A stretch of 64,000 nucleotides of DNA from Candidatus Poribacteria bacterium (GTDB lineage: Bacteria; Poribacteria; WGA-4E; WGA-3G), in NCBI GenBank assembly GCA_965205015.1, contig OZ242029.1:2016001-2080000 (forward strand), given 5' to 3'. The translations under genes and the position numbers were made by a program. Below the pieces are notes generated by a model that worked only from the letters and a program-made list of their open reading frames with translations, did not search any database and had not been told where the DNA came from. Below are positions 941-54,100 of the stretch, piece after piece (position 1 is the first letter of the stretch; the number at the start of each line of letters is the position of its first letter).

Positions 941-975
941 GTCGCGCGGGGTTTCGTGTCTCGCCGCGCGACTTT
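941..975 (+). terminator. GC-rich hairpin with short U-run between leader ORF and barrel gene (possible attenuator)
   Basis: gtcgcgcgg (941-949) pairs with ccgcgcgac (964-972), followed by ttt. Confidence 0.45.
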
Positions 976-996
976 CAAATAAGAGAAATTAAAATT

Positions 997-2046
997 ATGA
1001 AAATCCGTCTGTTTTTATGCACACTGTTGTTCACTTCGGTATTTATCTCTTTCGGGTTCGCACAAGAAAGTTGTCCCGCTTGAAGTAACCCCGTCTTACC
1101 GCCCAGCGGTCTGATGAATGAAGTCAGTTTGGCTTCACAAGAGATAGATCAGTTTCGAGTGAATATCAATATGTTAGTGTCCCCCGACGCACAAGGTGGA
1201 CATCTTGAATCAAGGGGACTTTCACCAACAGGAAAAGTTATCGACACTCCTTTACATAGACACCGTGTAGGGTTGAGCACTTACCGGATTGATGTTGGGG
1301 TCCAATACTTGCTGAGCGATCGGTGGACGTTGCGAGCAAACATTCCGTATGCCGTCAAAGACCAGGACGCAAGTATTGAGTGGATTGATTCAGTAACTCC
1401 TGAAGATAGGCAAGCGATCTTGCGGAGTCGGGATATCCATCATCGAGATGAAACCTACGCCGGACTTACGGATTCAGATCTGTTTTTGGGTTATAAAATG
1501 CGTGGACTCTTTAAAACCGATGACCTACTGTTTGCGCGGTTGGGCACCACAATTCCGATTGGCAAAACCGAGGAAAATCCTTGGAAACTCGGAGATGCGG
1601 GCATTGAGCATCTCCATATCCAGTTCGGGACCGGCACCTTTAACCCAATTGCCAACTTGCAATACAGTTTACCGCTCTACCGAGGTCTGACGATTATGGC
1701 TTCTACACGTGGAACGTTTCCGTTCTATGAGAACAGCAAGACGTATCGAGGTTCAGTAGAGTTAACTTACACAGCTGGCTTTATGTATCGCCTTTCGGAT
1801 TGGTTTTCATTTAACGGGAACTATCTCGGATTTTATCAATCCCCTGCCGCTTGGGCTGGGGAGCGGGACATCAACACAGGGATGCGTTATAGCATGGCAG
1901 CACTCGGTATGTCCATAGTAACGCTAAACGACATTTCCGTGTCTGCCAATGTCATGTTTCCGCTGACGCAAGAAACCCTTTACGATGGCGGCGACGCAAT
2001 TGAATTTGGAACTTTGGTCTCTTTGGCAACAACCTATTCATTTTAA
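997..2046 (+). CDS. Outer-membrane beta-barrel protein with N-terminal CxxU motif; putative selenoprotein (in-frame TGA 1081-1083)
   Basis: ATG 997 is in frame with ORF 1114-2046 and reads MKIRLFLCTLLFTSVFISFGFA-QESCPA*SNPVLPPSGLMNE...; signal peptide, amphipathic strands, terminal Phe (TTYSF), His-rich loops. Confidence 0.7.
1092..1116 (+). promoter_or_regulatory. Candidate bacterial SECIS hairpin
   Basis: accgc(1098-1102)/gcggt(1106-1110) extended by cgtc/gatg; alternative fold cag-CGGU-ctg (1104-1113); directly 3' of the in-frame UGA. Confidence 0.4.
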
Positions 2047-2847: not shown

Positions 2848-4200
2848 ATGCGTACAGTCAGGCTACGCCATCAAGTGACGGCAATTGTTATCGGCAGCAT
2901 GCTGGTGTTGGGTGTTCTGATGCAAACGGAAGCACATGGAATCACTCAGACAACACCAACGCCAGAACAAACCGATACGACAACCCTATTTGCTGAAACC
3001 CTTGAACTGCCGAATCTAATTCAGGTCGCTGTCGATCGGAATCCTAAAGTTAAAGCCGCAAAGGCACGGTGGCAGGCGACGATTGAGCAGTACCCACAAG
3101 TGACAGCATTGCCCGATCCGATGTTCATGTATGGCTATTTCTTACGGAGCGTGGAGACGCGAGTGGGACCGCAACGGCATCGGGTTAGCTTTTCACAAGC
3201 GTTTCCATACCCGGGCACCCTTGATGCAGCCGGACAGGTCGTCAAAAAAGCGATCGAAATTGAACGCGTGAAGCACGAGCAGGTAATACGGAATCTCATT
3301 GTTGAACTGAAACTGAGTTACCACGAGTTAGCGTATCTCCAGCGGGCAGTCGAACTGACACGACAAAACCATCAACTGATAGCCTCTATTCTCGCGATTG
3401 CCACAACTCGTTATGCCGAAGGGGAAGCGATACTCAATGATGTATTGAAGGCACAAAGTCAACTCGCTCAGTTAGAATACGATCTCGTCCTGCTGGAGGA
3501 ATTGCAGCGCGTTGAACATGCGAACATCAATGGAATCCTGTCTGTTCCTTCAACAACGCCGCTTGGCGCAACGGCACCTGTTGCCTATGAACCGCTTGAT
3601 GTGACGTTAGCCGATATTGAAAAACAGGCACTATCAAAGCGACAGGAGTTGCGAATTGCAGCGCTAACCATCGAAAAAGCCACCAAAGGGATTGTCCTTG
3701 CTGAACTCCAAACGAAACCCATGCTTAAGTTTGACTTAATGACAGTCGAAACGGGTAAAGCCTTGATGTTCGACACACCCGGCAGTGGTAAAAACCCATT
3801 TAGCATCGGGTTTGGTGTGACAATTCCGTGGTCAAGTTTGAAGAACAGCAGCAAAGTTCGCGAGGCGCAGCAAAACCGTGAGACTGTCACAGCGAACAAG
3901 CGCGCCTTGGAGGACGAAACGAAGGTTACCCTCCAAAAGATTTATTTTCGCCTTGAAAACGCGCGGCGGCTGATCGATCTCTATGAGACGACACTCATTC
4001 CGCAGGCGGGTGCTGCTATTGAGGTGGCGGAGACATGGCATCAAGAGGGACCCAAAAGCATAGCCGGATTCCTTGAGACGCAGAGTGTTTGGTTGAATTT
4101 TAATCTTGCTCGCCTACGTGCGATGGCAGACTATCAACAGAATGTAGCTCGATTGGAACGTCTGGTTGGGGGAAGGATCGATGATTCACAGAACCCTTAA
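2848..4200 (+). CDS. TolC-family outer membrane efflux protein (CusC/CzcC-like)
   Basis: NPKVKAAKARW...LPDPMF...SQAFPYPG motifs; OEP-type helical repeats; context. Confidence 0.9.
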   Translation: MRTVRLRHQVTAIVIGSMLVLGVLMQTEAHGITQTTPTPEQTDTTTLFAETLELPNLIQVAVDRNPKVKAAKARWQATIEQYPQVTALPDPMFMYGYFLRSVETRVGPQRHRVSFSQAFPYPGTLDAAGQVVKKAIEIERVKHEQVIRNLIVELKLSYHELAYLQRAVELTRQNHQLIASILAIATTRYAEGEAILNDVLKAQSQLAQLEYDLVLLEELQRVEHANINGILSVPSTTPLGATAPVAYEPLDVTLADIEKQALSKRQELRIAALTIEKATKGIVLAELQTKPMLKFDLMTVETGKALMFDTPGSGKNPFSIGFGVTIPWSSLKNSSKVREAQQNRETVTANKRALEDETKVTLQKIYFRLENARRLIDLYETTLIPQAGAAIEVAETWHQEGPKSIAGFLETQSVWLNFNLARLRAMADYQQNVARLERLVGGRIDDSQNP

Positions 4201-5758
4201 AATCGGTCTCATAGTGCTCACTGTTTTGGTAGGCGGGTGTGCCAGTCAGCGACTGGAAACCTACCAAGAGTTACGTAGCACTGAGATACAACGACCGGCA
4301 TATTACTATACCGAAGTCGAAACAGAGGTTTCCGATACGGAAAGCGAATCGACCGTGGAAACAGACCCATTTCTCAGCGAGATTGAAGCGAAGGTGTTGA
4401 AATACCAGAAACAGTGGCAAGCGCAATTGGAGAGTGAAACACCAGTACCCAATCTGTTTTACGATTTTTCAACGGACACCATGAAGGCACATCGACGATT
4501 GGCAGCATCACCGGAAGCAGCGAGAACCCAGCTTGCCCAACCTATTGTGCTGGAACTCCTCATAGCACTTGGATATGAATGGAACCCAGGTTTGAAAGCT
4601 GCCCATGAAAAAATTCGAGCGGTGCTGGAGCAGTATCCGCAAGCTGTTTACTTAGAAAATGTGTTACGTCAGTATAACGCTTTCACAAAACAACTGGATA
4701 CAAAAGTGGGACCGTTGACCCATAAAGAGATGACGGCAATGAAATTTCCGTTTCCAGGGACCTTGGCGTTGAAAGGGCAAGTTATTACTGAAGATGTGCG
4801 AATCGCCAAAAAAGAGTTCGAGATCGCATTACGGGATTTGGTGACCGAGATTAAGCTAGCTTACTACGATTATCTTTTTCTTACTGAGACAACCCATATT
4901 AACGAAGAAAATCAGGAACTACTAAAGCAGATGATTGCTATTGCGCAGGCGAAGTTTCGTGTTGGACAGGGCAAATATTCAAACCTCATTATGGCGCAGG
5001 TGGAATTAGCGAAATTGGCAGATGCAATTATTACACTTGAACAACAACGAGAAACTGTTATGGCACGCATTAATACATTGTTAAATAGTGCTGTGGATTT
5101 GCCATTAGGGGACCCTATGCCCGTTGAAGAAGATCGCGTGACACCTACTTTAACTGAGTTGTATGCGTTAGCAATTAAGAATCGTCAGGAGATTCAAAAA
5201 CAGAAATTGGCAATCAGTAAGATGGCTTTGGTTGTGGAGATGGCAAAGCAAATGACATATCCTGACCCGACGCTCGGGGCAAGTTACTTTGAAAATCGGA
5301 GCATGCCTGACTTGAAACACACACAAAAAATGCCGAGCACTTTTATGGCGCAACGTACATTAAATGCAAAGAATACAGCAGGGTTCGGACACCGAAATTC
5401 GTATATCCATGAAATGGGTGTAAAGATTGAGGCGATGGAGCACCAAATTGAGAAACTCGAAAGCGATCTCCGCTTTGTTGTGAAAAAACATCATTTTGGA
5501 ATGGAGACAGCAAATCGGAGTATTCGCCTTTATCGTCAGACACTACTTCCGCAAGCACAGCAGGCGTTGAGTGCCGCGAATACAGCGTATCAAGCGGCGC
5601 AAATTGACTTTTTGAGTTTCCTGGATGCCCAACGCACTTTATTAAATTTGAGGATTGAAGAGCAGCGGGCGCTGCGTGATTACCGCCAACACCTTGCACA
5701 GTTAGAACAGGCAGTTGGTATGATATTGCCCAAACAACCATTGATCCGAGGTTTTTAA
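4181..5758 (+). CDS. Second TolC-family outer membrane efflux lipoprotein
   Basis: ATG 4181, lipobox-like LVGGC, FPFPGTL, FLSFLDAQRTL...LEQAVG; overlaps previous gene. Confidence 0.88.
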   Translation: MIHRTLKIGLIVLTVLVGGCASQRLETYQELRSTEIQRPAYYYTEVETEVSDTESESTVETDPFLSEIEAKVLKYQKQWQAQLESETPVPNLFYDFSTDTMKAHRRLAASPEAARTQLAQPIVLELLIALGYEWNPGLKAAHEKIRAVLEQYPQAVYLENVLRQYNAFTKQLDTKVGPLTHKEMTAMKFPFPGTLALKGQVITEDVRIAKKEFEIALRDLVTEIKLAYYDYLFLTETTHINEENQELLKQMIAIAQAKFRVGQGKYSNLIMAQVELAKLADAIITLEQQRETVMARINTLLNSAVDLPLGDPMPVEEDRVTPTLTELYALAIKNRQEIQKQKLAISKMALVVEMAKQMTYPDPTLGASYFENRSMPDLKHTQKMPSTFMAQRTLNAKNTAGFGHRNSYIHEMGVKIEAMEHQIEKLESDLRFVVKKHHFGMETANRSIRLYRQTLLPQAQQALSAANTAYQAAQIDFLSFLDAQRTLLNLRIEEQRALRDYRQHLAQLEQAVGMILPKQPLIRGF

Positions 5759-5781
5759 TCCATTGAAAAGGAGTTCACAAA

Positions 5782-7578
5782 ATGCCTAAAAATTTCTGCT
5801 TTGCAACTGCACTCATAATGACTGTGCTTTTCGGATTCAGCTGTAATCAGCCAGAGAACACTAAAATGGAACATCATGTTAGTAGCAAACTTGAAACAGT
5901 ATCAGAGGATACTTCGAGCATAGATGAACACGCCAACCATACCGCAAGAGGGACATCCTCAGACGAAGCCAAAACGATCCGTTACTGGACATGTGTTATG
6001 CATCCGACGGTCAAAATGTCAGAACCTAACAATTGTCCAGTTTGTAAGATGGATCTGATTCCCATTTACGAAGGATCAGGACTGGAACTCACTGAGCAAC
6101 AAAAGGCGCTGATTCCAGTGCGTACTGAACCTGTTGCGTTCCGTGAGGTTTCCCGCGAAATTCGAACCGTCGGTGTTCTGGATTATAATGAGACCCGTAT
6201 GGCGTACGCTTCAACACGAATCTCCGGATGGATTGAGGACTTGCACATTGATTTCACAGGTATCAACGTGCGTGAAGGCGATGAGCTTTTATCTATCTAC
6301 AGCCCGGAATTGGTCACAGCGCAAGAAGAATACTTGACGGCACTTAAAAGCATTGAGGAACTGCAAAATACAGAATACGCTACACTTCGAAAATCAGTTG
6401 AACAGACCCTTACCGCTGCAAAATCCAAACTTGAATTATACGGATTGACCTTAGACCAGATTGAGGGGATACGCAACCGCGGAGAGGTCAGTACAACCTT
6501 ACCCCTGTTTGCACCGATAGCTGGTACTGTGGTTCACATGAACGTCACGGAAGGTCAACACGTGAACAAGGGGATGAATCTTTATCACATTGCCGACCTC
6601 AGTAGCTTATGGATTATGGCAGACGTTTACGAATATGAACTGCCTTGGATCTACATGGCGCAAGCGGTTGAAATTACGACGCAGTCGATGCCCGGACTAA
6701 CGTTTTCTGGTAAAGTCTCCTACATTTATCCATTCTTTGATGCCCAAACGCGGACCCAAAAAGTCCAGATAGAAGTCGCCAATCCCACTGGACGACTCCG
6801 CCCCGGGATGTATGTAACGCTTCAAATGAAGCCTACACTCGCAGAGATCTATACGCAAGGAGCTGTCTCGAATATTGCATCCGAGCCAATATCTGAAACA
6901 GAAGGGAAGTGGTCGTGTCCTATGCATCCAGAGGTGCAGTCTGATGAATTCGGAGAGTGTTCTATCTGTGGTATGGACCTCGTCGAAAAACAGGAGACCG
7001 AAACGGGAGGAAAATGGTCGTGTCCTATGCATCCAGAGGTGCAGTCTGACGAATTCGGAGAGTGTTCTATCTGTGGCATGGACCTCGTCGAAAAACAGTC
7101 AACTGATGCGCATTCTCACGGACATCAGTCTTTCACCTCGCCGACTGTTCCAGCAGATCAACCGCCACTAATTTTCAAATATGTGTGTCCTGATGATCCG
7201 GATGAATATGCGACCGTACCCGGCCTATGTCCACGGGACGGAAAACCCCTCCTTATGACAGGTGAAGTTTTAACTGTACCCAAAAGTGCAATCATTGACA
7301 CCGGTTTACGGAAGATTGTCTTTGTGGATCGGGGCGAATCAGGTTATGAACAAGTGGAAGTTGAAGTGGGTCCTGAGGCTTGGGGTACATCGAGCGGCTC
7401 AGAAACCAAACGCCGATACTATCCTATTGTGAGTGGGCTTACCCCTGGCGATATGGTTGTCACCCATGGCAACTTCCTGATAGATTCGCAGACGCAATTA
7501 ACAGGCTCCGCATCAGGGGCTTATGGCGGGGCACTCGGCGATGATGAATCAAAAGTATCGCCTGTCCATCAACATTAA
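5782..7578 (+). CDS. cusB: Efflux RND periplasmic adaptor (CusB-like) with multiple heavy-metal-binding domains
   Basis: WTCVMHP..CPVCKMDL, 2x WSCPMHP..CSICGMDL, YSPELVTAQEE, LRPGMY, GNFLIDSQ. Confidence 0.9.
   Translation: MPKNFCFATALIMTVLFGFSCNQPENTKMEHHVSSKLETVSEDTSSIDEHANHTARGTSSDEAKTIRYWTCVMHPTVKMSEPNNCPVCKMDLIPIYEGSGLELTEQQKALIPVRTEPVAFREVSREIRTVGVLDYNETRMAYASTRISGWIEDLHIDFTGINVREGDELLSIYSPELVTAQEEYLTALKSIEELQNTEYATLRKSVEQTLTAAKSKLELYGLTLDQIEGIRNRGEVSTTLPLFAPIAGTVVHMNVTEGQHVNKGMNLYHIADLSSLWIMADVYEYELPWIYMAQAVEITTQSMPGLTFSGKVSYIYPFFDAQTRTQKVQIEVANPTGRLRPGMYVTLQMKPTLAEIYTQGAVSNIASEPISETEGKWSCPMHPEVQSDEFGECSICGMDLVEKQETETGGKWSCPMHPEVQSDEFGECSICGMDLVEKQSTDAHSHGHQSFTSPTVPADQPPLIFKYVCPDDPDEYATVPGLCPRDGKPLLMTGEVLTVPKSAIIDTGLRKIVFVDRGESGYEQVEVEVGPEAWGTSSGSETKRRYYPIVSGLTPGDMVVTHGNFLIDSQTQLTGSASGAYGGALGDDESKVSPVHQH
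6910..7098 (+). repeat. Intragenic tandem duplication (84 nt unit, 105 nt period) of a heavy-metal-binding domain
   Basis: 6910-6993 and 7015-7098 identical except two synonymous changes. Confidence 0.95.
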
Positions 7579-7587
7579 GGCTCAGAT

Positions 7588-7647
7588 AAGAGGCGTTGTT
7601 AAACGAAAATCTCTTAACCGATAACTGATAACCGACAACCGATAACC
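7588..7647. repeat. Heptamer array (aaccgat/aactgat/aaccgac) element upstream of cusA
   Basis: aaccgataactgataaccgacaaccgataacc 7616-7647 preceded by aagagg...ctctt. Confidence 0.7.
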
Positions 7648-7650
7648 ATT

Positions 7651-10600
7651 ATGATTAACCGAATTATCGAAATCTGCATGAAGAACCGCCTGTTGGTGTT
7701 AGTCATCTTTGTCTTTGTCACAATGACGGGTTGGTGGGCATTGAACCAGACCCCAATTGATGCTATGCCCGACATCGGTGAAAACCAGGTCATTGTCTTC
7801 GCCGATTGGCCCGGACGAAGTCCACGGGATATTGAAGATCAGGTTATCTATCCCTTGAGTATTACCCTGCTTGGAATCCCCGATGTCAAAGATGTTCGCT
7901 CGACTTCCATGTTTAGTTTTGGCTACATTAACATTATCTTTAAAGATGATGTTGATTTCTATTGGGCTCGTACACGGGTACTGGAGCGAATGAATCTGGC
8001 ACAAAGGGACATGCCGGACGGTGTTGTGCCGATCCTCGGTCCCGATGCAACGGGCGTTGGACAAGTGTTTTGGTACACCGTTGAGAACGGGTACTATTGT
8101 CCGAATCATCCGACGAGACGCTATGCGAAGCCTGGTAAATGCCCGGAAGATGGTGAAACGCTTATTGCCTCCAATCTGGAGCTTCATGAACTTCGGACAC
8201 TCCAAGACTGGACGGTTCGTTACTATCTCGCCTCTGCTGATGGCGTTTCCGAGGTCGCCTCGGTCGGTGGATACGTCAAACAGTATCAGATCGACATCGA
8301 TCCGAACACTTTATTGGCGTATGATGTGCCGTTATCAATGGTTTACAACGCCGTCCGAGGGAGCAACCTTGATGTTGGTGCCAAGGTTATTGAGGAAGGC
8401 GGAATGGAGTTCCTAATTCGCGGCTTAGGTTTCATCAAAAGCATCGCGGATATAGAAAACATCGTTGTCAAGGAGCATAACGGCGTACCCATCTACGTCA
8501 AAAACCTTGGAACAGTCAGCGAAGGTCCCGACTTTCGGCGTGGTGCTTTGGACAAGGCTGGAATCCCCGCAACCGGTGGGGTCGTTCTCATGCGCTACGG
8601 TGATAACCCACTGCGCGTCATTGAGAACGTCAAGGCGAAAATAGCGGAACTCACACCTGGACTTCCACCCGGCGTCCAAATTGTACCATTCTATGACAGG
8701 AGCCATCTCATTCACCGCGCAACGGACACGCTGAAAGAAACATTGACGGAGGAAATCATCGTCGCGGCGGTTGTTATCCTGCTTTTCTTAGGACAAGTTT
8801 CAAGTAGTCTCATAATAGCACTTGTCTTACCGATGGGAGTTCTCCTGTCGTTTGTAGGTATGCGGATTATCGGTTTACCTTCAAACATCATGTCAATGGG
8901 TGGCATCGCCATCGCAATTGGCGTTATGGTGGATGCAGGTATTGTAATGACAGAGAATATCGCGCGACATTTACGGGAACCCCATGCAGGCGAAAGCAAG
9001 CTGCAAGTTGCAACGCGTGCCGCTAAAGAGGTGGGTCCACCTATCTTCTTTGCAATGCTCATTGTTATTGTTGCATTCATACCTGTTTTTTCTCTTACCG
9101 GTCAAGCGGGTAAACTTTTCAAACCGCTTGCCTATACAAAAACGTTCGCTATGATTGGGGCAGCACTTTTGGCGATTAGCCTTGTGCCGGTTTTAGCCTC
9201 ATTTCTACTCACGGACCCAACCCGTACCCCGACGGGTATGATTTCCAAGTGGGTGGCACGGTTCTTTTCACTACTCAGCTGGCCCCTAAGAAAGTTAGCG
9301 GATGGGATTACATGGATACTCAGAACTCTCTATCGTCCGATTATTCGATTGGCTGTAAGAAATATTTGGACCAAACTCGCTGTTGTTGTTTTAGCGGGAT
9401 TGGCTTTTGTCGCAAGTATACCCTTGACGCCTTTCTATAAAAATATTGGACAAGAATTCATGCCGCCACTTAACGAAGGCGCATTGTTGTTTATGCCGGT
9501 GCTGCTCCCGGGTGCCTCGATTACGCAAGCGAAAGATGTAATGGCGAAACAGGACTTGATTATGAATCGATTCCCTGAGGTTTCACTTGTCGTTGGAAAG
9601 TTGGGGCGAGCGGCAACAGCAACCGACCCTGCCCCAATTGGCATGTTTGAAACCATTGTCAATATAGTTGACCCAGCAGAGTGGCCCCGACGGGCTATTA
9701 AACATAATTCGACAAGGGAACTCGTACACCACCTCGTCCAACGCTTAAAACGCCAGGAACTGATGAGTGAGGAGCATGTAAACCATATTAACACCGAGTT
9801 TCTGGATGACATTGTTAAAGCTGCCATAAAACGGTTTGATACCTTGGCGACGACATACCATAATTCTTATCTGTCAGTTGATGCGCGCGAGAAACTCTAT
9901 CGAATCTGGTTATTACGAATCCTTTTGGAGGAGCTCCTCTCCGAAGAGCGAACAGGCGCAATGGGATTGGAACAGGTCAGAATTGGAGAATCTGAGACAG
10001 AAACGAAACTTCATCGGATTGCCGAGGAAATTGAGCCGACCCTCAAGCATAAAACTTATTTTCGGACCAAAAACCGCAACGAACTTATCACCGAACTGAC
10101 GGAGGCGACCCGGATGCCGGGGGTTTCCCCTATTATGACGCAGCCCATACGCAATCGTGTTGATATGCTCGCGACAGGTATACAGACGCCAATTGGAATC
10201 AAAGTGTTTGGGAAAGACCTCGCCAAGATTGAAGAGATCGCAGTGCGGATTGAGCAGGAACTCCTTAAACTTCAGGGAGCACAAGGTCCCTATGCCGAGC
10301 GCATTGGGAATAAGCCGTACCTTGAATTTCACATCGATCGAGAGGAAGCCGCCCGCTACGGCATCCAAATCAAAACAGTTCAACAAATCATCATGACAGC
10401 GATCGGCGGCATGAATTTAACCCATACCGTTGAAGGGCGGGAGCGATTTCCAATTCGTATCCGGTACATGCGAGAATTACGGGATAATATTGAAGCACTC
10501 AAGCGTGTACTTGTGCCAACACCAAAAGGGCTACACATTCCACTTGAGCAACTCGTAAAAATCGAAAGACGACCGGGGCCCGCGAAGATCGCAAGCGAGA

Positions 10601-11319
10601 ATACGCTCCTCTTTTCCCGCGTTTTTTGTGATGTAGATGTTGACACGATTGGGCTGGTTGATTTTGTCACATTAGCCCAAAAAACACTTGATGAGAAAAT
10701 TAAGCCAACCTTGCCCCAAGGCTATTTCTACGCCTTTAGCGGACAGTATGAAGCGGAACTTGAAGCCCGCGATCGATTAACAATTGTTGTGCCGGTATGT
10801 ATTGCCGTCATCTTTATGTTGCTGTACCTCCAGTTCAAGTCACCGTCTGCGATGTTTTCAATCTTCCTTGCGATTCCCTTTGCATTCATCGGGGGTATGT
10901 GGATGCAGTGGTTGATGGCATACGTGCCAGAAGCACTCGGCGGCGGTTACGCTATTAAATACAGTACGGCAGTATGGGTCGGATATATAGCCTTGTTTGG
11001 CATAGCCGTCGAAGATGGAATCGTCTTAATTGAATATCTACTGCAGCGAGTCCGGAGTGGTGAACCTATTGATGAAGCGGTAATCAATGCCGGCTTATTG
11101 CGTGTCCGCCCTATCATCATGACCACAGCAACTACAGTCTTGGCGTTATTGCCGATCATGTTAGCAGAAATTAGCACGACTACCGGCGCAGAATTAATGA
11201 AGCCCATCGCGGTCCCTACCTTCGGTGGTATGGTCTCGGCGACGGTGGCTAACCTTATCTTGGCACCCGTGTTATTTTCTCTCTTCTATCCGATTGAGCA
11301 TTGGATTCGCCAACGGTAG
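7651..11319 (+). CDS. cusA: CusA/CzcA family heavy-metal efflux RND permease
   Basis: PIDAMPDIGENQVIV, LGPDATGVG, NIMSMGGIAIAIGVMVDA, EFMPPLNEG, RVRPIIMT. Confidence 0.95.
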   Translation: MINRIIEICMKNRLLVLVIFVFVTMTGWWALNQTPIDAMPDIGENQVIVFADWPGRSPRDIEDQVIYPLSITLLGIPDVKDVRSTSMFSFGYINIIFKDDVDFYWARTRVLERMNLAQRDMPDGVVPILGPDATGVGQVFWYTVENGYYCPNHPTRRYAKPGKCPEDGETLIASNLELHELRTLQDWTVRYYLASADGVSEVASVGGYVKQYQIDIDPNTLLAYDVPLSMVYNAVRGSNLDVGAKVIEEGGMEFLIRGLGFIKSIADIENIVVKEHNGVPIYVKNLGTVSEGPDFRRGALDKAGIPATGGVVLMRYGDNPLRVIENVKAKIAELTPGLPPGVQIVPFYDRSHLIHRATDTLKETLTEEIIVAAVVILLFLGQVSSSLIIALVLPMGVLLSFVGMRIIGLPSNIMSMGGIAIAIGVMVDAGIVMTENIARHLREPHAGESKLQVATRAAKEVGPPIFFAMLIVIVAFIPVFSLTGQAGKLFKPLAYTKTFAMIGAALLAISLVPVLASFLLTDPTRTPTGMISKWVARFFSLLSWPLRKLADGITWILRTLYRPIIRLAVRNIWTKLAVVVLAGLAFVASIPLTPFYKNIGQEFMPPLNEGALLFMPVLLPGASITQAKDVMAKQDLIMNRFPEVSLVVGKLGRAATATDPAPIGMFETIVNIVDPAEWPRRAIKHNSTRELVHHLVQRLKRQELMSEEHVNHINTEFLDDIVKAAIKRFDTLATTYHNSYLSVDAREKLYRIWLLRILLEELLSEERTGAMGLEQVRIGESETETKLHRIAEEIEPTLKHKTYFRTKNRNELITELTEATRMPGVSPIMTQPIRNRVDMLATGIQTPIGIKVFGKDLAKIEEIAVRIEQELLKLQGAQGPYAERIGNKPYLEFHIDREEAARYGIQIKTVQQIIMTAIGGMNLTHTVEGRERFPIRIRYMRELRDNIEALKRVLVPTPKGLHIPLEQLVKIERRPGPAKIASENTLLFSRVFCDVDVDTIGLVDFVTLAQKTLDEKIKPTLPQGYFYAFSGQYEAELEARDRLTIVVPVCIAVIFMLLYLQFKSPSAMFSIFLAIPFAFIGGMWMQWLMAYVPEALGGGYAIKYSTAVWVGYIALFGIAVEDGIVLIEYLLQRVRSGEPIDEAVINAGLLRVRPIIMTTATTVLALLPIMLAEISTTTGAELMKPIAVPTFGGMVSATVANLILAPVLFSLFYPIEHWIRQR

Positions 11320-51198: not shown

Positions 51199-54100
51199 TT
51201 ACTCGCCACCACCGCCGCCACCACCGGCAGCACCACCACGAATTTCCAGATTATTCGCCCGCATGTAGCTTTGAATCGTCTGGATTTGGCTGATTGCGTA
51301 CGTGAGTGCTTGGTTGACCTTCGTGTCTACAGGCGGCGTTGTCTCATATTTTGCCCACAACCGGTTGAAGTAATCCAACGCATCGTTGAAATACGCGTCG
51401 TCGCTATCGGCTAACACCATGTATGCCTCACCAATCTGCACGAAACCGAGATCTGCATACTTGCTTCCCGGATATGCGTCGATGATCTTCTGATACTCAG
51501 CGATGGCGGCTTCGACGGCAGGTTTCTGCTCGTCACCCCTCGCGAGTTTCGATTCATTCAGGAGCGTCGTTGCGACCTCATACTCGTAGAAAGCGAGCGC
51601 ATTCGCAGTATCATTGAGATAGCCTTGTGCTGTCGATTTCGACTCTGCACCGATACCGGGCGTATTGACTGCTTGCTGATAGTTCTCTATCGCCATCTGA
51701 TAGAGACGAATCCGTTCCGCTTGCTCCAGCTCAGATTCGGAGCCTGCGTTGTAGTACTTGTTGCCAATGTTAATAAGGGCATCAGCGGTGTACTGACTGT
51801 TCGGATACTCAGCGGCAAGCACTTCGTTCGCCGCAAAGAGTTGATCATACCAGCGCTGTTTCGCGTCCTCATCGCCGGATTTTTCGGCGGCTTCACTGAG
51901 AAGCTGCGCACATGTCGAGATAGCATACAACGATTCAGCAGCACTCTTGTGAGTCTTATTCACAGTGCGCACCTTCTCGTATTCCTCAATCGCTTTCTCA
52001 AACTGTTGCGCGGCGTAGTAGGATTCGCCGACGTGATACTGCCAGAAAGCGGCATCGTTCGCACTCGGATAACGACGCACCATATCACGGAAGACATCGC
52101 CAGCGGCAATGAAAAAGCTTACCGCTTTTTCAGACATCTCACCGTCCATACCGACTTGCATCCGTCCGAGTTCAAAGTTCGAAGCGGCTGTGTAATTCAG
52201 TGCGGTTTCCGTATTCTTACGGAGGGTATCCGATTTCGGGAAGAGTCCCTTATCGACGTAACTCACGAACGTCGTGAGCGGTTGCAGCGCACTGAGGAGG
52301 TCTTGCGGAAGTTTCACGCCAATACCGACAGAATAATATATCTGACCGGATTGGAAGAGTGAATTCTGAACATACGGGATGACCGTCTGTTTGTCCGCCT
52401 TTTCAACCGGGGCTGCAATTGAAGCGACTTCAAAGAATGTGCTTGCGGCATCCCGACTCGCATCAATGTACGGCTTCAGGTCTGTGCCTGCCTCTGTGGA
52501 GAAGAGCGAACGCGCTTTGTCAGAATAGAGGAAACCGAGGTTGTATTGTGCAGCGGCTTTTTCTGCTACACTCGCGTTCGGATTTTCTGTTGTCCGATCA
52601 CGGGCTTCAATCGCTTCAGCGATCGCTTCATCTAAGCGTCCCAATTCAACGTAGAGCGTCGAGCGACGGATACCAGCGTCTGCTACCATTGAGGCGACAT
52701 TCGTGTTGTCCGAACCGCTATATTCTCCGATAAGGGTTTGGAAGGTTTCCAACGCCTTAGACGGCTGTTTCAACTGGTCTTGATAAATCAAGCCGATCCG
52801 ATAGTAGGATTGCGCTTTGACGAGTGCGTCTTCTACTAACTCAATGGCGTTCTGGTAACTCATCAAGGCGTCCTGATAAGTTTTCAGTTGCTCCTCTTGG
52901 GCAAATGCCATTGCGAAGTAGGAGCGTCCCTTCATGTCTGCCTCTTCGGTGTTCTCAATAATATATTGATACTCTTGCACCGATGCGGCGTGGTCGCCGA
53001 GGATTCCGTTGAGTTCAGCAAGACGGGAATGCGCTTGGAAGATAAGCGACTTGCGCGCCTCGTCCTCGGTTTGTCCTTCTAATGCTGTAACCGCTTTGAA
53101 GGCGTCTGCAGCCCCTTTATTGTCCTCGAGTCCGAGCAACGCCAAACCCGCAGTGTAGTTAGCACTGATGAGGTTGTTCGCATCTTCCGTCAGGGTGCTC
53201 ACTTTTTCCGCAGCACTTACAGCGTTCTGTAGGCTCAACTGCTTGCTGCCTGCATCCGTCGCGGATTGCGCGATCTGATAATGACAGACTGCTGCTTGAT
53301 ACTGTGCGTTCGGGGCGAGTTCACTCTTCGGGAAAGTTTGCACAAAGAAGAGATACTCCGCCAGTGCTTCATCATAGCGTTTCGCACTATAGTAAGTGTG
53401 CCCGATCTTCAGTTGCGAACGGCTGCGTGCCTCTTCCGGCGCACCTGTGTTATCGACAATGCGCTTCAGCGAAGCCACGAGCGCATCAACATCGACCTCT
53501 TCACCGCTGTTTTCAACGGCAGTGGCTTTAATCAAGTCGATATGTCCGAGCGTCTTGAGAACGAGCTCATTGTCACTGGATCCATATTTATCGCTCGCTT
53601 CGTCGGCGAGTTGCAGGATGAGGGGCCATTTTTCCGTATCGTTCTGCTTTTGTGCCGCATCGCGATAGGCGAGTGCCAAGCCGTAATAGGCTTCAACGGC
53701 GTTGGGACTATCGGCATAATCGGAAATCACGCGTTTGAACGCTGCTTCGGAGGATTCCAAGAGTGCCGGATCTTCAGAAGCGGCTTGGTAATAGCAAAGT
53801 CCGACGAGGTAGAGCGCATCGTCTGCGTATTCACCCGTCGGGTTCCCATCGACCACAGCTTGGTACTGGGTAGCTGCTTCTTCAAAGCGCTCCTCTGCCC
53901 GGAGCAGGTCAGCGAGTTTAATCTCTGCCAACGAACGGTTGTCAGCGTCGGCAAGCTTATCTAAAATGCTGTTATAGTAGTTAATCGCACCCTCTTTATC
54001 GCCTTCCTTGACATGACTATTCGCAACGAGAAGGAGTGCGCGTTCGTAGTATTCACTCGTGTCAGGAATAGATGCGTAGCGGTCGCGTGCTTGCGTCCAG

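Follow-up and report, generated by a model that had tools for sequence, protein, structure and literature searches.

The gene at positions 997-2046 (+ strand) of the window, by which we mean the whole 64,000-nucleotide (nt) stretch of Candidatus Poribacteria DNA analyzed here (contig OZ242029.1, positions 2,016,001 to 2,080,000), is best introduced through the described systems that come closest to it. In predicted fold, these are the outer-membrane (OM) channels of the COG4313/PF13557 type (4RL8, Pseudomonas putida F1) and FapF (5O65), which are titled in the PDB as a hydrophobic-molecule channel and an amyloid secretion channel, respectively. In the placing of selenocysteine (Sec, U), they are NF041115 ('UxxU_metal_bind') and NF045683 (MerT/CopZ fusion-like), in which Sec also replaces Cys in a soft-metal CxxC-type motif, including UxxU, in heavy-metal contexts (accessible part of PMC13188914). 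These are small HMA-fold or inner-membrane MerT-type proteins, whereas the motif of the barrel family described here lies outside an HMA fold, on a tether predicted to be disordered. The only OM beta-barrel in the accessible selenoprotein tables of PMC9312934 (2022) and PMC13188914 (2026) is MtrB/PioB (GSU2204); the same tables hold several metal-binding Sec proteins, none of them of the fold of the window barrel. MtrB/PioB belongs to a different barrel family (PF11854), has no CxxU or UxxU listed in those tables, and has a role tied to multihaem cytochromes. Finally, the canonical bacterial Sec insertion sequence (SECIS) of the Escherichia coli fdhF type shares with the element described below a coding stem-loop 3′ of the UGA, a conserved G-U in the apical loop, and a covarying stem.

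The frame opened by ATG 997 is shared with a 310-amino-acid (aa) open reading frame (ORF) called from position 1114 and comprises 349 codons followed by a TAA at 2044-2046, with codon 29, a TGA at 1081-1083, as its sole in-frame stop. Read through this codon, the protein is MKIRLFLCTLLFTSVFISFGFA|QES-C26-P-A-TGA29-SNPVLPPSG... and ends in ...TTYSF. The segment encoded by 997-1062 has the charged start and hydrophobic core of a signal peptide, which by rule would be cleaved after GFA, and the C-P-A-U motif follows at 1072-1083 with its Cys codon at 1072-1074. By comparison, the 310-aa ORF lacks a signal peptide, and its start, ATG 1114-1116, falls inside a conserved RNA hairpin. The first-pass annotation had proposed the extension to ATG 997 with its signal peptide, the C-P-A-TGA motif containing the only stop, and the absence of a signal peptide from the shorter ORF; on reading 997-2046, all of these held.

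Conservation of the TGA was assessed at several evolutionary distances. A search of 5.8 billion proteins returned 611 homologs. Among the 120 of these that were listed, most were called at 309-312 aa and the named ones were Candidatus Poribacteria; none covered the N-terminus (coverage ≤89%), all starting at or after the internal ATG, as a conserved upstream stop would bring about. ATG 1114-1116 thus appears to be a false start for the database entries. We then translated through the stop at 80 loci from species-representative genomes, all of them Poribacteria metagenome-assembled genomes or uncultured bacteria, and most of these matched the window protein over residues 1-349 by tblastn. Group 1 comprises 47 loci (L001-L046 and L075, the window excluded) that are 69-94% identical to the window protein; L044 is cut at its 5′ end, and the other 46 all read ...GF(A/T)QES-C-P-A-stop-SNP. 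Their motif is written TGT/TGC, CCN, GCN, TGA, AGY, AAY, CCN, with variable third positions and a TGA that is fixed in 46/46 loci as well as in the window. Group 2 is a paralog (33 loci, 55-61% identical) with an additional TGA at the position of the group 1 Cys. It reads Q(E/M/D/N)S-stop-G-A-stop-SNP, encoded as TGA-GGN-GCN-TGA, and both stops are TGA in 33/33. The signal peptides of the two groups change in sequence and keep their charge and hydrophobic pattern; what is maintained across loci is a charged start, a hydrophobic core and G-F-A/Q-E-S, without a lipobox. One group 2 locus, L076, has a further in-frame stop at about codon 63, where others have Trp (MMR*FDAQGGH); this might reflect a pseudogene, an error in sequencing or variation between strains.

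Beyond these genomes, 1.84 billion cluster representatives were searched exhaustively with HMMER, which yielded 407 relatives at E ≤ 0.001. Where the gene call takes in the whole N-terminus, the motif is A-C-P-A-C-S-N-P or C-A-x-C-x-N-P, and CPACSNP occurs in nine full-length homologs. A metagenome scan with the family alignment added 80 loci, 74 of which include the N-terminus: 49 are UxxU (all TGA), 5 CxxU and 20 CxxC. Within this sample, UxxU thus outnumbers the other forms. Its carriers share only 28-47% identity with the query homolog, so that the double-Sec pattern, as predicted from these sequences, is not peculiar to Poribacteria. Because the recoded-TGA arrangement recurs in 79/79 genome loci with an N-terminus and in 54/74 metagenome loci, the comparison excludes its origin by chance. 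Across orthologs, then, the in-frame UGA is conserved with coding-type conservation on both sides, and homologs carry Cys at its position (9 full-length proteins; 20 CxxC loci). The first-pass annotation had reckoned with a nonsense mutation confined to this strain and with an unconserved upstream segment. Instead, TGA is present in all 46 orthologous loci and UxxU in all 33 paralogs, Cys-x-x-Cys appears in more distant homologs, and upstream of the motif conservation is at the protein level, with synonymous wobble in the codons. Several other 'TGA AGY AAY CC' sites (window positions 51351 and 57293; loci L041, L047, L051 and L001) were rejected as out-of-frame chance matches flanked by many stops.

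Independent assemblies were consulted as contigs rather than reads, which tell of presence and not of expression level. Contigs from a sponge metagenome of a different study (X4) and from two metatranscriptomes (X8 and X18) span the frame start, the TGA and the body of the gene, those of X8 and X18 as single contigs of 2274 and 2685 nt that are ~95% identical. Of the small-share runs X17-X20, X18 alone was drawn on. Among the 40 listed of 91 difference rows, none changes 1081-1083, so that the TGA stands on this check as far as the listed differences reach; the listed pieces of X4 leave 1054-1130 uncovered, though depth is reported there. A further run, X1, is a possible source of the assembly and not independent, and carry-over of DNA into the X8 and X18 RNA libraries is possible.

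The RNA that follows the UGA shows a second kind of constraint. In the window, 76 nt around and after the codon fold into two hairpins (z = -2.6). Hairpin 1 (1092-1116) lies between the UGA and hairpin 2 and holds ATG 1114 in its 3′ arm, and hairpin 2 (1119-1137) is a SECIS-like apical hairpin, UGAAGUC-AGUUU-GGCUUCA, whose loop G at 1127 is 46 nt past the U of the UGA. In the Poribacteria alignment (RNAalifold), hairpin 2, UGAAGUCA-GUU-UGRCUUCA, is nearly invariant in nucleotides; 7/7 pairs are kept in 73 of 74 unique sequences, and the switches seen are solely G-U, A-U or C-G. Over codons 41-50, synonymous-codon entropy is as low as 0.02 in group 1 and 0.19 in group 2, compared with 0.56-1.73 in all other 10-codon windows. 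Since synonymous variation drops only over hairpin 2, this trough in the aligned sequences marks a constraint on the RNA itself. The Poribacteria alignment alone was too uniform for compensatory changes in hairpin 2, and these were supplied by the wider metagenome set. There, diverged Sec forms again have the two-hairpin layout with different stems (GGAGGCC/GGUCUCC, GUCGGCC/GGCCGAC, GGGAACC/GGUUCCU) and with hairpin 2 loops of AGUUU, GGUCC, GGUCU, GGUUC or CGUGC. The loop of fdhF is GGUC, which GGUCC and GGUCU resemble. Hairpin 1 was seen by inspection in Sec forms of all lineages, with differing stems and a loop that is not conserved.

To quantify hairpin 2, the best 7-bp stem around an N-G-U-N-N loop 25-62 nt past the UGA was scored in unique sequences. 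Six or seven of the seven pairs formed in 110/117 Sec forms (93 with seven, 17 with six), as against 0/17 Cys forms and 57/2340 shuffled Sec forms. The loop lies 36, 39, 42, 45 or 48 nt past the UGA, i.e., in whole-codon steps. Among 42 unique hairpins, two-sided changes affect all 7/7 pairs (72 cells), and 86.1% of cells are paired versus 64.7% after column shuffling (the observed value is attained in 0/500) and ≤50.8% with slid partners; the alignment was chosen for best pairing around the GU, which inflates the paired percentage and tells against taking it at face value, so that the fair comparison is with the Cys-form and shuffle controls. Over the whole segment, Sec forms (n = 46) have a mean fold z-score of -1.93 and Cys forms (n = 16) one of -0.47. 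The element has a covarying hairpin, an invariant loop GU and specificity for UGA forms, but its spacing is long and it has no match in Rfam. Compared with the canonical element, the loop G is farther away (37-49 nt from the nearer UGA), a variable second hairpin fills the gap, and a single element follows the two UGAs of UxxU forms, which are 9 nt apart. We infer that hairpin 2 is the SelB-binding apical hairpin and hairpin 1 a spacer.

The machinery for decoding such a signal is present in the relatives of the window organism. In 5/5 related Poribacteria genomes we found SelA (E ~1e-155), SelD, tRNA-Sec (78 bits vs. a cut-off of 47) and, directly adjoining the tRNA-Sec gene, SelB; ARAGORN likewise called a tRNA-SeC with anticodon tca in 2/2 loci checked. 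No tRNA was found in the 64-kb window itself. The Sec machinery that the first-pass annotation had proposed to look for is thus complete in relatives, although it is theirs and not that of the window's own genome. The SelD of all five genomes contains one in-frame TGA and reads TVKCAG-TGA-ASKLAPGE (in L093, L094 and three more genomes), with a small hairpin right after the UGA, making it a selenoprotein candidate in its own right. A comparison with this SelD hairpin did not discriminate which hairpin of the barrel gene binds SelB. The earlier proposal that the TGA encodes Sec gains support from its invariance, its alternation with Cys, the UGA-specific hairpin and the Sec machinery of relatives, and we regard it as very probable that codon 29 specifies Sec.

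The body of the protein gave only sub-threshold barrel matches in Pfam (Toluene_X, E = 0.002; OMP_b-brl, E = 0.006). An AlphaFold2 model of a natural Cys homolog, P0126 (~37-39% identical to the window protein), built from a 59-sequence alignment, is a closed beta-barrel (mean predicted local distance difference test score 88.3; predicted template-modeling score 0.83) with two short helices at 137-150 and 197-202, and residues 17-47, which bear CPAC, are disordered in the model. Its best PDB matches by Foldseek are FapF (5o65/5o67) and the COG4313 channel 4rl8 (template-modeling score by target 0.63-0.70; E = 3e-11 to 5e-10), followed by FadL-type transporters. The likeness is at the level of fold alone, with 11-15% identity in sequence to these PDB structures, and a PDB sequence search with the family profile gave no match. 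For COG4313 or FapF proteins, we are not aware of an N-terminal tether bearing CxxC, CxxU or UxxU, of a set of invariant histidines or of neighboring metal genes. Protein-language neighbors of P0126 are PF13557-carrying clusters and one Poribacteria cluster, and precomputed annotation gives a few family members weak PF13557 matches. By direct search, however, the window protein has no PF13557 match at E ≤ 0.01 and only 1/14 homologs has one, at E = 0.0013, so that by the gathering score of its model the window protein falls outside PF13557. With a signal peptide and terminal Phe in the window protein and a closed barrel in the P0126 model, the modeling supports assignment of the window protein to the OM beta-barrels of the FapF/COG4313 fold class, in keeping with the barrel suggested by the first-pass annotation. 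The "His-rich loops" noted there are better described as an invariant set, H69, H89, H148 and H149 in the window protein, joined by an HxH pair that does not vary among the aligned homologs; in P0126 numbering the set includes H71, H91, H150, H151, H207 and H209, the last two being the pair.

The genes around the barrel in the window, all on the + strand, point to heavy-metal handling. Twelve nt past the barrel stop and after AAGGAG begins a YHS-domain protein with His- and Met-rich stretches (2059-2688), which has counterparts downstream in 30/47 group 1 loci. Stretches of this kind are known from periplasmic Cu(I) binders. It is followed by two TolC-like outer-membrane efflux proteins (OEPs; 2848-4200, PF02321 E = 2.9e-37; 4166-5758, PF02321 E = 5.6e-31), a CusB-like membrane fusion protein with three HMBD stretches (5782-7578; PF16576 E = 2.5e-73, PF19335 E = 1.9e-35) and a CusA/AcrB-type resistance-nodulation-division (RND) pump with one HMBD stretch (7651-11319; PF00873 E = 1.6e-209). 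The tandem OEP genes share a 35-nt overlap, and the CusA-like pump, at 1222 aa, is longer than usual. OEP-OEP-CusB genes occur in 28/47 group 1 loci, 40/47 of which have at least 6.5 kb downstream. Upstream of the barrel, a 146-aa ORF (382-822) with a hydrophobic N-terminus, Cys-rich motifs (CPFLC, CC, CC) and no Pfam family has a tblastn match upstream in 46/47 group 1 loci. One possible role is that of a partner anchored in the membrane, metal- or redox-active, standing in for the HMA-thioredoxin gene of other lineages.

That gene is found in the metagenome relatives, where a fusion of an HMA domain (GMxCxxC) with a thioredoxin domain (WCGPC), predicted to be secreted, lies directly upstream of the barrel in 38 loci. 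The matches end 72-165 nt before the motif in 20/20 CxxC, 16/49 UxxU and 2/5 CxxU loci; in several loci the fusion gene overlaps the barrel start, and one further locus has a match downstream. P1B-type ATPases lie nearby in seven metagenome loci, one of which also has YHS and HMBD, and four loci have a MerT-HMA fusion close by. In two loci, L114 (~3300-3950) and L116, the fusion gene before a UxxU barrel has the HMA motif GMT-TGA-PSG-TGA with WCGPC intact, which by its sequence is probably a double-Sec HMA domain. In one homolog, P0130, the barrel continues into a C-terminal HMA domain, and models of the NF041115/NF045683 type matched just that domain. The Poribacteria paralog has different neighbors: an aldo-keto reductase upstream at a fixed distance in 33/33 loci, and downstream a family-5 solute-binding protein (31/33), an ATP-binding cassette (ABC) permease (30/33) and, further on, a MIP channel (19/33), as read in loci L053 and L065 over 5054-10700. 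The Cus-type operon that the first-pass annotation had described is confirmed for the window, but the family is not confined to such operons: Cus genes accompany it in the window and 28/47 group 1 loci and in neither the paralog nor most metagenome relatives, whose commonest partner is the HMA-thioredoxin fusion, and the paralog stands beside an ABC importer.

Taken together, these observations make it reasonably likely that 997-2046 encodes a secreted OM-barrel selenoprotein whose CxxU tether acts as a soft-metal and/or redox site. Following removal of the signal peptide, the mature protein would start Q-E-S-C-P-A-U-S-N-P, the UGA at 1081-1083 having been decoded as Sec by SelB and tRNA-Sec under the direction of the variable spacer hairpin (1092-1116) and the 7-bp hairpin with its N-G-U-N-N loop (1119-1137). 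A flexible N-terminal tether of ~25-30 residues would thereby present a Cys-x-x-Sec pair ahead of the barrel, and this selenol/thiol pair could bind the soft metals Cu(I), Ag(I) or Hg(II), act on them by redox chemistry, or both. Together with the His-lined barrel it might pass or hand over metal at the OM, working in the window with the YHS/Met-rich periplasmic protein and the Cus-type RND efflux system, and in other lineages with a secreted HMA-thioredoxin partner that would keep the pair reduced or exchange metal with it. Given a selenol/thiol or diselenol pair, a presumably His-lined barrel and a context of copper, silver and mercury genes, a soft-metal site appears to be the simplest role for the tether. 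The selenolate ligand for soft metals suggested in the first-pass annotation is now backed by a wider metal-gene context. What the sequences and the model show is the conserved recoded UGA, the alternation of Cys and Sec, the RNA element, the Sec machinery of relatives, the barrel fold of a homolog and the gene contexts. Insertion of Sec, location of the tether, the metal-ligand role and the direction of transport are inferred from these, and on the last point the contexts differ: the Cus genes suggest efflux or periplasmic clearance, and the ABC importer beside the paralog suggests uptake.

A more ambitious version of this model, which we offer as a tentative proposal that could well prove wrong, is that the family is a missing OM component of soft-metal trafficking. 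Here the periplasmic UxxU/CxxU tether of a His-lined channel would capture Cu(I), Ag(I) and Hg(II) and pass them to or from the pore, the HMA-thioredoxin protein would recycle or load it, and one SelB-type hairpin 37-58 nt downstream, behind a spacer hairpin, would serve two UGAs 9 nt apart.

Two readings of the UGA that do without Sec can be set against these data. The codon might be decoded as Trp, Cys or Gly, via a near-cognate or suppressor tRNA or a local change of code. Two database proteins, P0181 and P0183, indeed have Trp at the TGA positions, and the claim for Sec comes from sequence; the Trp, however, was probably supplied by a gene caller using a TGA=Trp table. Moreover, TGA terminates 4/32 long frames in the window, and neither the 1222-codon CusA frame nor the long efflux genes contain one internally, so that by its usage here TGA is not a general sense codon. 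The position alternates with Cys alone across the family, the downstream hairpin is limited to TGA forms, and the Sec machinery of relatives is complete, all of which leaves decoding as another residue very improbable. Least probable of all is that the UGA is a true stop, with 997-1083 being a 28-codon leader peptide or non-coding and the real protein the 310-aa ORF from 1114. This would agree with the predominance of 309-312-aa calls and the missing N-termini among the 120 listed homologs. On the other hand, a protein so truncated would be a beta-barrel ending in Phe that lacks a signal peptide, the region upstream retains signal-peptide character while its codons vary synonymously, and the Cys forms are continuous through the motif. 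ATG 1114 is also missing from 11 group 1 loci, which read ...SGIGEV... in this region, and the paralog would require two leader stops, both always TGA.

Of a different kind is the view that the protein is a genuine selenoprotein whose CxxU/UxxU pair is a redox centre and not a metal ligand. Such a pair would cycle between selenol/thiol and selenylsulfide/diselenide, recycled by the partner's thioredoxin domain, and might reduce Cu(II) or Hg species, disulfides or peroxides at the OM or gate the barrel by redox state. The commonest partner gene does carry a thioredoxin domain with WCGPC, the Poribacteria paralog adjoins an aldo-keto reductase in 33/33 loci, and CxxU, UxxC and UxxU are typical redox motifs in the accessible tables of PMC13188914 and PMC9312934. 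The same partner also has an HMA domain, however, and the other neighbors are P1B-ATPases, MerT-HMA, Cus pumps and YHS/HMBD proteins; P0130 has HMA joined to its barrel, and the window barrel has no adjoining thioredoxin gene. As an exclusive account we consider the redox centre rather unlikely. Since the partner bears a thioredoxin domain, a redox cycle may nonetheless be at least part of the mechanism, and the redox and metal roles of the pair are not mutually exclusive.

Returning to the Sec-containing, metal-handling barrel that we favor, several observations weigh against it. Sec at codon 29 is deduced from sequence, and the decoding machinery is that of relatives 84-94% identical in the barrel protein. 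The loop G lies 37-49 nt from the second UGA and 46-58 nt from the first in UxxU forms, and canonical bacterial SECIS spacing, in the bSECISearch description, is reportedly ~16-37 nt. A search of Rfam gave no SECIS match, its sole hit, CRISPR-DR at E = 2.9, being rejected as chance. In 7/117 Sec forms, hairpin 2 is missing by the NGUNN criterion; one of these, L054 (loop GGU), is a scoring miss, and four UxxU loci, L166-L168 and L174 (U-P-A-U-A-N-P or U-A-G-U-T-N-P), show the first hairpin alone and may use another Sec-decoding structure. The modeled structure is that of P0126 and not of the window protein, to which it is ~37-39% identical, and the lining of the pore by histidines is assumed. 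As for function, the metal context is not universal within group 1 (YHS 30/47, OEP/CusB 28/47), and the aldo-keto reductase and ABC importer of the paralog fit uptake as well as efflux.

Within the searchable literature, the family appears to be undescribed, as the first-pass annotation had surmised. We found no description of it in the accessible parts of PMC13188914, PMC9312934, PMC12013277, PMC13326102, PMC2398784 and bioRxiv 10.1101/2022.07.06.499078, or elsewhere in the literature searched; supplementary lists such as BSepDB Table S2 could hold it. PF13557 is absent from the accessible text of PMC13188914. Neither the read-through protein nor P0126 matched NCBIfam release 20.0 (including NF041115, NF041027, NF045683 and the MtrB/PioB model) at E ≤ 0.01. 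The recoding itself is standard, and what appears to be new is the family, the OM location, the tandem UGAs and the distant two-hairpin signal. If confirmed, a widespread and systematically mis-annotated family, occurring in sponge, marine and other environmental metagenomes, would join the bacterial selenoproteome. Export of a Sec protein and its insertion into the OM would have one precedent in the accessible parts of two recent reviews, and the use of selenium as metal ligand would reach the cell surface. The family would also suggest that Cu/Ag/Hg handling has an OM step so far unrecognized, of which a conserved pair of genes, HMA-thioredoxin and barrel, would form part. The tandem UGA-N6-UGA with its distant covarying hairpin offers a natural test case for the reach and repeat action of a SECIS, and gene callers and SECIS finders that assume canonical spacing would miss the family.

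Some minor features deserve mention. Past the Cys-rich ORF and ahead of the barrel start, 942-976 (+) form an inverted repeat rich in G+C (GTCGCGCGG ... CCGCGCGAC) with TTT after it, which may be a terminator or regulatory hairpin. A simple promoter and terminator scan, in which the counts were not above those of shuffles, listed just a shorter stem here, 938-950. Lastly, one source names P0046 a 'restriction endonuclease subunit S', yet it is a member of the barrel family.

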